Origin: Escherichia coli
Lineage (GTDB): Bacteria > Pseudomonadota > Gammaproteobacteria > Enterobacterales > Enterobacteriaceae
Direction: 5' to 3' (one strand)
Assembly (NCBI RefSeq): GCF_003334305.1
Contig: NZ_QOWS01000006.1
Length of the DNA stretch: 64,000 nt
Part shown: positions 56,257-57,709 of the stretch, in pieces
Layout of the letters: the number at the start of each line of letters is the position of its first letter
Position numbering within the stretch: position 1 is the first letter of the stretch
Notes under the pieces: model-generated
Databases searched by the model: none
What the model saw: the letters and a program-made list of their open reading frames with translations, nothing else
Told to the model about the DNA's origin: nothing
Program-made: the position numbers and the translations under genes

Positions 56257-57650
56257 GCGGTACCCTCACGACGCGGTGCGCGTTTGCGTGGACGACGAGT
56301 ACGACGACGCGGTGACGGTTCTTCATCCAGCTCGTTAAGCATCCCTTTTTGATCTGGTGGTGCGGAAACCTGGAACTCACCCCACCATTTCACCAGACGC
56401 TGCAGTTCAGCATTACGTTCAACTTCAGCTCGCAAGGCCAACAGGTCATAAGCCGCACGGAACTTAGGATGCTCCAGCAGTTTCCATGCGCGTTTACCCT
56501 GACGACGGGACATACGCAACTGCAACTGCCAGATATCGCGGGTTAACGTCGTCAGACGTTTCGGGATTGCCAGTGAACGGCAGGCTTCGTCCAGCACGTC
56601 GTTCATCGCCAGCGCGAAAGCGTCGTGATAGGTCAGGCCGCTTTCCTGGGCGATCTTCTGTGCCGTCTCCAGCAGTGGGTACCAGAACATGGCGGCAAAC
56701 AAGAACGCCGGGTTCACGCGCATATCGTTATGGATACGCGTATCGGTATTCTTCAGCACCTGTTCAATGATCCGCTCCATCGGGCTGTCGCCATTTTCCG
56801 TGAAGTAGCGGGTAATGGTCGGGAACAGCGGCTGGAACAGATGATATTCACACAACAGCTTATAGGTTTCGTAACCGTAGCCCGCTTGTAGCAGTTTAAG
56901 CGATTCTTCAAACAGGCGTGCCGGTGGGATATCGTTCAGCAGGGTAGCGAGGCGAGGGATCGGTTCTGCGGTTTCCGGGCTGATGCGCATACCCAATTTG
57001 GCGGCAAAACGTACCGCGCGCAGCATACGTACCGGATCTTCACGGTAGCGCGTTTCCGGGTTACCAATCAGACGGATAACGCCGTCCTTCAGATCCTTCA
57101 TACCGCCAACGTAATCACGGACGGTAAAATCCGCTACGCTGTAATACAGGCTGTTGATAGTGAAATCGCGGCGCTGGGCGTCTTCTTCGATGGAGCCGAA
57201 AATGTTGTCGCGCAGCAACATGCCGTTTTGCCCGCGTTGGGAGGTCGTGCGGTCGCTGACGTTACCTTCGTGGTGTCCACGGAAGGTTGCAACTTCGATA
57301 ATCTCCGGGCCAAACATCACATGAGCCAGACGGAAACGGCGACCCACCAGGCGGCAGTTACGGAACAGTTTGCGCACCTGCTCAGGCGTGGCGTTAGTGG
57401 TTACGTCAAAATCTTTCGGCTTTTTGCCAAGTAACAGGTCGCGCACGCCGCCGCCAACCAGCCAGGCTTCGTATCCCGCTTTGTTGAGCCTGTACATTAC
57501 CTTCAGGGCATTTTCACTGATATCTTTGCGGGAAATAGCATGCTGCTCACGCGGGATCACCGTCACCTGTGGACGGGCGACTGCCTGTTCAGCCTCGCTT
57601 TCCTCGCGGCTTAGCACCTTGCGGCAAAAATTAGCGACTCGGGTAAAAAT
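56253..57650 (-). CDS. pcnB: poly(A) polymerase I; native start is a non-AUG AUU codon
   Basis: ORF-track entry begins at an upstream in-frame TTG (reverse complement of 57669..57671). Native N-terminus [13 protein letters not shown] corresponds to the ATT codon at 57648..57650; nucleotidyltransferase motifs ([18 protein letters not shown]). Confidence 0.88.
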
Positions 57651-57709
57651 AGTACACCTCGGTAGTGTCAAACATCATTCAGGACAAAAAAATAGCGGCT
57701 AATCATAGC

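Follow-up and report, generated by a model that had tools for sequence, protein, structure and literature searches.

On the minus strand of the 64,000-nt stretch of Escherichia coli DNA analysed here (hereafter the window), the gene pcnB, encoding poly(A) polymerase I (PAP I), raises the question of which codon initiates its translation. A mechanical list of open reading frames enters the gene as 56253..57671 (-), 472 aa, with a TTG start, while an earlier note on this DNA regarded that TTG as an artefact of the ORF finder and placed the native start at an in-frame ATT (AUU) downstream of it. In the literature, AUU is given as the experimentally determined start codon of pcnB and is credited to Binns & Masters 2002 (PMC2939334; bioRxiv 10.1101/063800; PMC3561954; PMC4447247; PMC5499595; PMC9764084; PMC2830850; PMC9410913). 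The AUU start is described there as limiting the synthesis of PAP I (PMC3561954; PMC4447247; PMC9764084), an enzyme present at ~30-50 molecules per cell and toxic when overproduced (PMC3561954). In reporters, AUU supports ~1-2% of the initiation obtained with AUG (bioRxiv 10.1101/063800), and the promoter proposed for the gene in 1989 lies downstream of the real pcnB start (PMC2939334). The literature search found nothing useful for E. coli in the way of initiation-site ribosome profiling naming pcnB. From the evidence set out below, we put the probability at about 95% that pcnB in the window starts at the known AUU (57650..57648), positioned by a Shine-Dalgarno sequence, that weak initiation at this AUU limits PAP I, and that the TTG lies in a non-coding leader.

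The pcnB Locus and Its Reading Frame

The minus strand of the window carries dksA, gluQRS, pcnB and folK in this order, as part of the E. coli chromosome, and the gluQRS-pcnB-folK context is also present in the RefSeq features. The 601-bp stretch around the pcnB start was matched by 5,425 of 5,426 complete E. coli genomes, with an identity of 100% in strain 120899 and 99.7% in K-12. The encoded protein scored 996.3 bits against the NCBIfam PcnB equivalog NF008634.1 (cutoff 702), with residues 1-464 of the 465-aa form aligned to profile positions 1-468 of 469, and it is 100% identical to the chains of PDB 3AQK-3AQN over residues 28-442.

Read along the minus strand, the frame opens after a TGA (57677..57675) and runs through TGT, TTG (57671..57669), ACA CTA CCG AGG TGT ACT and ATT (57650..57648), after which it continues as TTT ACC CGA GTC GCT AAT TTT TGC CGC AAG GTG. 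The ATT is in frame with the TTG, 7 codons downstream of it, and the product read from the ATT, MFTRVANF..., has 465 aa; the positions and the frame that the earlier note had given for the two codons were exact. At the other end of the gene, the pcnB stop codon and the folK start codon share an ATGA overlap, which suggests translational coupling, so that the translation of folK might follow the weakly initiated pcnB. The coordinates of all features are collected in Table 1.

A second over-extension in the ORF list was observed for the adjoining gluQRS, entered mechanically as 57710..58636 (-), 308 aa, and annotated in RefSeq as 298 aa from MTDTQ (58606). Matches at the Rfam gathering score to four sRNA families (PssrA, STnc40, naRNA4 and tp2) lie elsewhere in the window and are unrelated to pcnB; no Rfam family was found overlapping the pcnB locus.

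Table 1. Features at and around the pcnB start, and sRNA matches elsewhere in the window.
Feature	Coordinates	Strand	Basis
ATT (AUU) initiation codon	57648..57650	-	sequence; 80/80 Enterobacteriaceae loci; distant homologues; literature
Shine-Dalgarno GAGGTG, 4-nt spacer to ATT	57655..57660	-	80/80 loci at fixed spacing; duplex energy
pcnB CDS from ATT, poly(A) polymerase I	56253..57650	-	RefSeq WP_010723084.1; 465 aa + stop
In-frame TGA bounding the mechanical ORF upstream	57675..57677	-	sequence; 9 codons upstream of ATT
ATGA overlap, pcnB stop (TGA) / folK start (ATG)	56253..56256	-	sequence, ORF list, RefSeq coordinates
Codons 2-13: invariant 12-residue peptide, conserved synonymous sites, part of the translation initiation region	57612..57647	-	80-species comparison
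Promoter-like block: -35 TTCTCA 57730..57725, 17-nt spacer, -10 TATGAT 57707..57702, G+C-rich TAGCCGC 57701..57695	57695..57730	-	sequence match
TTG of the mechanical ORF track (472-aa form), not the start	57669..57671	-	no SD, poor conservation, no codon-position bias
GTG codon 12 (454-aa database form), not the start	57615..57617	-	no SD (+0.5); coding-type substitutions upstream
ATG codon 52 (414-aa form, start proposed in 1989); at most a minor, non-conserved internal start	57495..57497	-	weak SD (-3.9); 23/80 species
Rfam sRNA matches (PssrA, STnc40, naRNA4, tp2)	4185..4274, 9921..9990, 10394..10471, 21746..21859	+, +, +, -	gathering score

Shine-Dalgarno Pairing and Accessibility of the ATT

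The Shine-Dalgarno (SD) sequence that the earlier note had suggested seeking upstream of the ATT was found as GAGGTG at 57660..57655, 4 nt away, and the ATT is accordingly an in-frame AUU with an SD at a functional distance. The duplex of this SD with the 3' end of the 16S rRNA has an energy of -7.2 kcal/mol, which falls within the top ~2% of window positions when all 128,000 positions on both strands are ranked. By the same measure, the values were +0.4 kcal/mol for the TTG, +0.5 kcal/mol for the GTG at codon 12 and -3.9 kcal/mol for the ATG at codon 52. No stable RNA structure was seen around the pcnB start in a comparison with 200 shuffled versions, 197 of which folded more stably than the actual 101-nt start region (z = +1.74), indicating that the site is open. 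Reviews term the pcnB ribosome binding site "poor" (PMC3561954; PMC9764084), a label with which the good 6-nt SD present in this sequence is at odds; the 4-nt spacer may be what makes the site suboptimal.

Conservation of the Start across Enterobacteriaceae

The pcnB loci of 80 Enterobacteriaceae species, with protein identities of 86-100%, were compared, and both the ATT and the GAGGTG were kept in all 80, at the same spacing. A lone ATT is unremarkable by chance; its significance lies in this invariance together with GAGGTG-N4 and in the high rank of the SD energy.

Translation from the upstream TTG would yield the 472-aa form and turn the ATT into an internal isoleucine codon. In its favour, no canonical start precedes this TTG in the open frame, deposits of the 472-aa form are widespread, also under a "MULTISPECIES" NCBI name, and UUG is named as the pcnB initiation codon in the introduction of PMC3561954, the discussion of which gives AUU, an inconsistency that may have contributed to the survival of the 472-aa annotation. 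However, the TTG is without an SD, and the codon aligned with it is TTG in only 26 of the 80 species, the others showing AAA, CTG, CAC and further codons, among them ATG (two Salmonella) and TGA (one species). In 43 of the 80 species, the frame upstream of the ATT has no ATG, GTG or TTG at all back to the nearest stop, and in five species the upstream in-frame stop lies no more than 7 codons from the ATT (some 5-7 codons). The pattern of substitution points the same way, as the 7 codons of the supposed TTG extension vary equally at codon positions 1, 2 and 3, and the synonymous-only pattern begins directly after the ATT, with five variable sites in codons 2-12, all of them third-position and all synonymous across the 80 species.

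In Salmonella enterica subsp. diarizonae and arizonae (L022 and L023, respectively), the codon at the TTG-aligned position is an in-frame ATG, in the context ATG ACA CTA CCG AGG TGC GCT ATT, and this ATG is still more likely to mislead gene callers, or is possibly a genuine alternative start in these subspecies.

The Upstream Leader and a Promoter-like Block

The promoter-like block overlaps the end of gluQRS (stop codon 57712..57710), and its TTCTCA-17-TATGAT is the sole sigma-70-like match in 57500..58000; the block is probably the published pB promoter. In 72 of the 80 species TAGCCGC occurs no more than 140 nt ahead of the ATT, the flanking TTCTCA...TATGAT is also conserved in the variants listed, and the distance from TAGCCGC to the ATT differs between species (36-72 nt) by amounts not divisible by 3. 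As the leader changes its length by non-multiples of 3, it is non-coding, and two conserved blocks flanking a length-variable leader are the pattern of a non-coding 5' UTR.

If the promoter-like block is the active promoter, the TTG is probably on the transcript, and trace initiation at the TTG is therefore possible as judged from sequence alone. As the start of the gene, the TTG is nevertheless highly improbable, the leader indels standing against it alongside the missing SD, the absent codon-position bias and the agreement of RefSeq, the curated NCBI model and the consensus of the literature on ATT/AUU. The view that the TTG is an artefact of the ORF finder thus held, on its lack of an SD and its poor conservation, and the SD, the conservation, the pattern over codon positions and the frame-breaking upstream indels all bore out the native AUU start, which is also the one attributed to Binns & Masters 2002.

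Distant Homologues

Representatives of more distant homologues were chosen from a search of 1.84 billion proteins, and their DNA was then retrieved; they have the same neighbours, with tRNA-synt_1c upstream and HPPK downstream. GAGGTG-N4-ATT is kept in homologues at 62-67% identity, where the record of L086 begins at the ATT, the called start of L084 is a TTG lying 13 codons before the ATT, and that of L087 (62% identity) is a GTG 12 codons downstream of it, equivalent to the codon-12 GTG of E. coli. In L088 (54% identity, ~position 290) and L089 (50%, ~position 340), the DNA ahead of the called start encodes the same short peptide of the N-terminus, with ATC at its head, and the stretch from the upstream stop to the peptide contains no ATG, GTG or TTG; this ATC looks like the AUU-to-AUC replacement described for infC. 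A canonical GTG start was observed in L090 (48% identity). Both the AUU or AUC start and the short peptide that it heads reach homologues at ~50% identity, and the ATT and ATC codons observed in the distant homologues are in line with a view credited to Binns & Masters, according to which AUU is probably the start codon of many PAP I genes in proteobacteria (PMC3561954). Public gene calls missed the AUU/AUC start in five of the seven homologues inspected, and the gene callers were wrong on the more distant pcnB homologues in three different ways.

Annotation of the Start in Public Records

The comparison with annotated pcnB starts that had been proposed for this gene came out in favour of the ATT: RefSeq/PGAP places the start there in both records opened (465 aa, WP_010723084.1), namely those of a K-12 isolate and of the 100%-identical strain, and this correct placement is helped by the curated model, which starts at residue 1 of the 465-aa form. 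An exact-sequence look-up found the same protein deposited as 472 (TTG), 465 (ATT), 454 (GTG) and 414 aa (ATG), the first three forms each on at least 1000 contigs and the 414-aa form on 39. The expectation of the earlier note that an automated annotator would misplace the start therefore failed for RefSeq/PGAP but is supported by the 472-, 454- and 414-aa deposits and by the errors in distant homologues, and the warning about annotators is justified for ab initio callers and for older records.

The 454-aa form corresponds to translation from the downstream GTG of codon 12 (57617..57615), as in older O157:H7-type annotations. Frequent as this form is among the deposits, and although a gene caller picked the equivalent GTG in L087, the codon has no SD, codons 2-11 are protein-invariant in the 80 species with only synonymous third-position changes, and the peptide upstream of the GTG can still be discerned in homologues of only ~50% identity, so that the chance of translation beginning at this GTG is close to nil.

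Conservation of the Initiation Region and the N-Terminal Peptide

With the AUU taken as the start, the codons that follow it were found to be conserved beyond the level of the protein. The mean third-position major-allele frequency is 0.932 in codons 2-13 vs 0.716 in the rest of the gene (79 species), and none of the 257 other windows reaches 0.932 (Mann-Whitney p = 6e-6), which suggests an RNA-level constraint on the pcnB initiation region beyond coding. Near-invariance at the nucleotide level extends over the GAGGUG, the 4 nt, the AUU and the first ~9-12 codons, including fourfold-degenerate sites (79-80 species). It is conceivable, as a tentative reading, that the whole initiation region works as a module at the level of the RNA, either tuned for regulated initiation or bound while it takes place; such a module may be, for example, one for IF3-sensitive initiation needing an open A/U-rich downstream region, or a binding site for a factor or sRNA.

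In the protein, residues 2-30 of PcnB (57561..57647, -) comprise an invariant 13-residue N-terminal peptide and then a hypervariable linker (residues 14-30), with up to 10 amino-acid alleles per site in the 80 species. A similar basic/hydrophobic peptide heads the distant PcnB homologues. The crystal constructs span residues 28-442 only and are without the N-terminal peptide and most of the linker.

Synonymous sites are also conserved above the rest of the gene (0.86-0.90) in a second patch, codons ~33-51 (57498..57554, -), which adjoins the internal ATG (57497) on its upstream side and lies in the general area of the reported sigma-S promoter pS1 (PMC2939334).

Besides the AUU-initiated protein, a truncated PAP I of 414 aa could be translated from this ATG on a transcript from the internal pS1, a suggestion floated in PMC2939334, which notes two anti-PAP I bands in Western blotting and a pS1 that is active in special conditions. 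The GAAGG upstream of the ATG, a weak SD-like sequence, and the conserved patch just before the ATG would fit such an isoform, but the ATG is present in only 23 of the 80 species, no canonical start occurs at codon 51 or 52 in 20 of them, and the product would be without the invariant N-terminal peptide; the authors of PMC2939334 themselves considered it unlikely because pS1 needs unusual conditions. We also regard a truncated isoform alongside the AUU product as unlikely. As a general feature, a second isoform initiated at the internal ATG and conserved among the species was rejected on the same count of 23, and a product from this ATG would, by its distribution, be at most lineage-specific and minor.

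Proposed Mechanism and Comparison with Known Systems

According to the explanation favoured here, initiation at the AUU, the GAGGUG (57660..57655), four bases upstream, would position the 30S subunit on the AUU (57650..57648), and initiation there with fMet would give the 465-aa MFTRVANF... protein. As a poor initiator, presumably discriminated against by IF3, the AUU would hold down the synthesis of an enzyme whose excess is toxic; IF3 is proposed as the discriminating factor at pcnB by analogy with the infC mechanism (PMC5499595; PMC9410913). The TTG is simply the first NTG after the in-frame stop, inside the non-coding 5' leader.

To our knowledge, pcnB and infC are the only two E. coli genes reported with an AUU start. 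The pcnB of E. coli K-12 (b0143; Binns & Masters, Mol Microbiol 2002, 44:1287) is the same gene, with the same codon, the same 465-aa product and the same proposed role of an inefficient start that limits PAP I, and nothing of substance distinguishes it from the gene in the window, which comes from a non-K-12 E. coli. Like pcnB, infC, which encodes IF3, has an AUU start (AUC in some species) that is conserved across species and holds expression down (PMC4447247; PMC5499595; PMC9410913); unlike pcnB, which is without a feedback loop, infC is autoregulated, IF3 itself discriminating against the AUU, and the two genes are unrelated. In Enterococcus faecalis, the rare ATT start of ebpA likewise attenuates expression and was mis-annotated at another canonical codon (PMC4447247), whereas ebpA is a Gram-positive pilus gene, and the codon wrongly annotated as its start was an ATG further downstream rather than a TTG further upstream.

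Significance

The AUU start of pcnB has been known since 2002 and stands in the reference annotation, and the finding made in the window is correct and ordinary. For biology very little is new, the only mildly new elements being that the whole initiation region is conserved at the level of the RNA, and how far pcnB is mis-annotated in other genera. The practical value lies in annotation, as the same protein is in circulation at four lengths and callers confined to ATG, GTG and TTG misplace the start of pcnB from other genera in three or more ways, and predicted PcnB N-termini should be re-anchored on the GAGGTG-N4-ATT/ATC site, for example in studies of the invariant N-terminal peptide.
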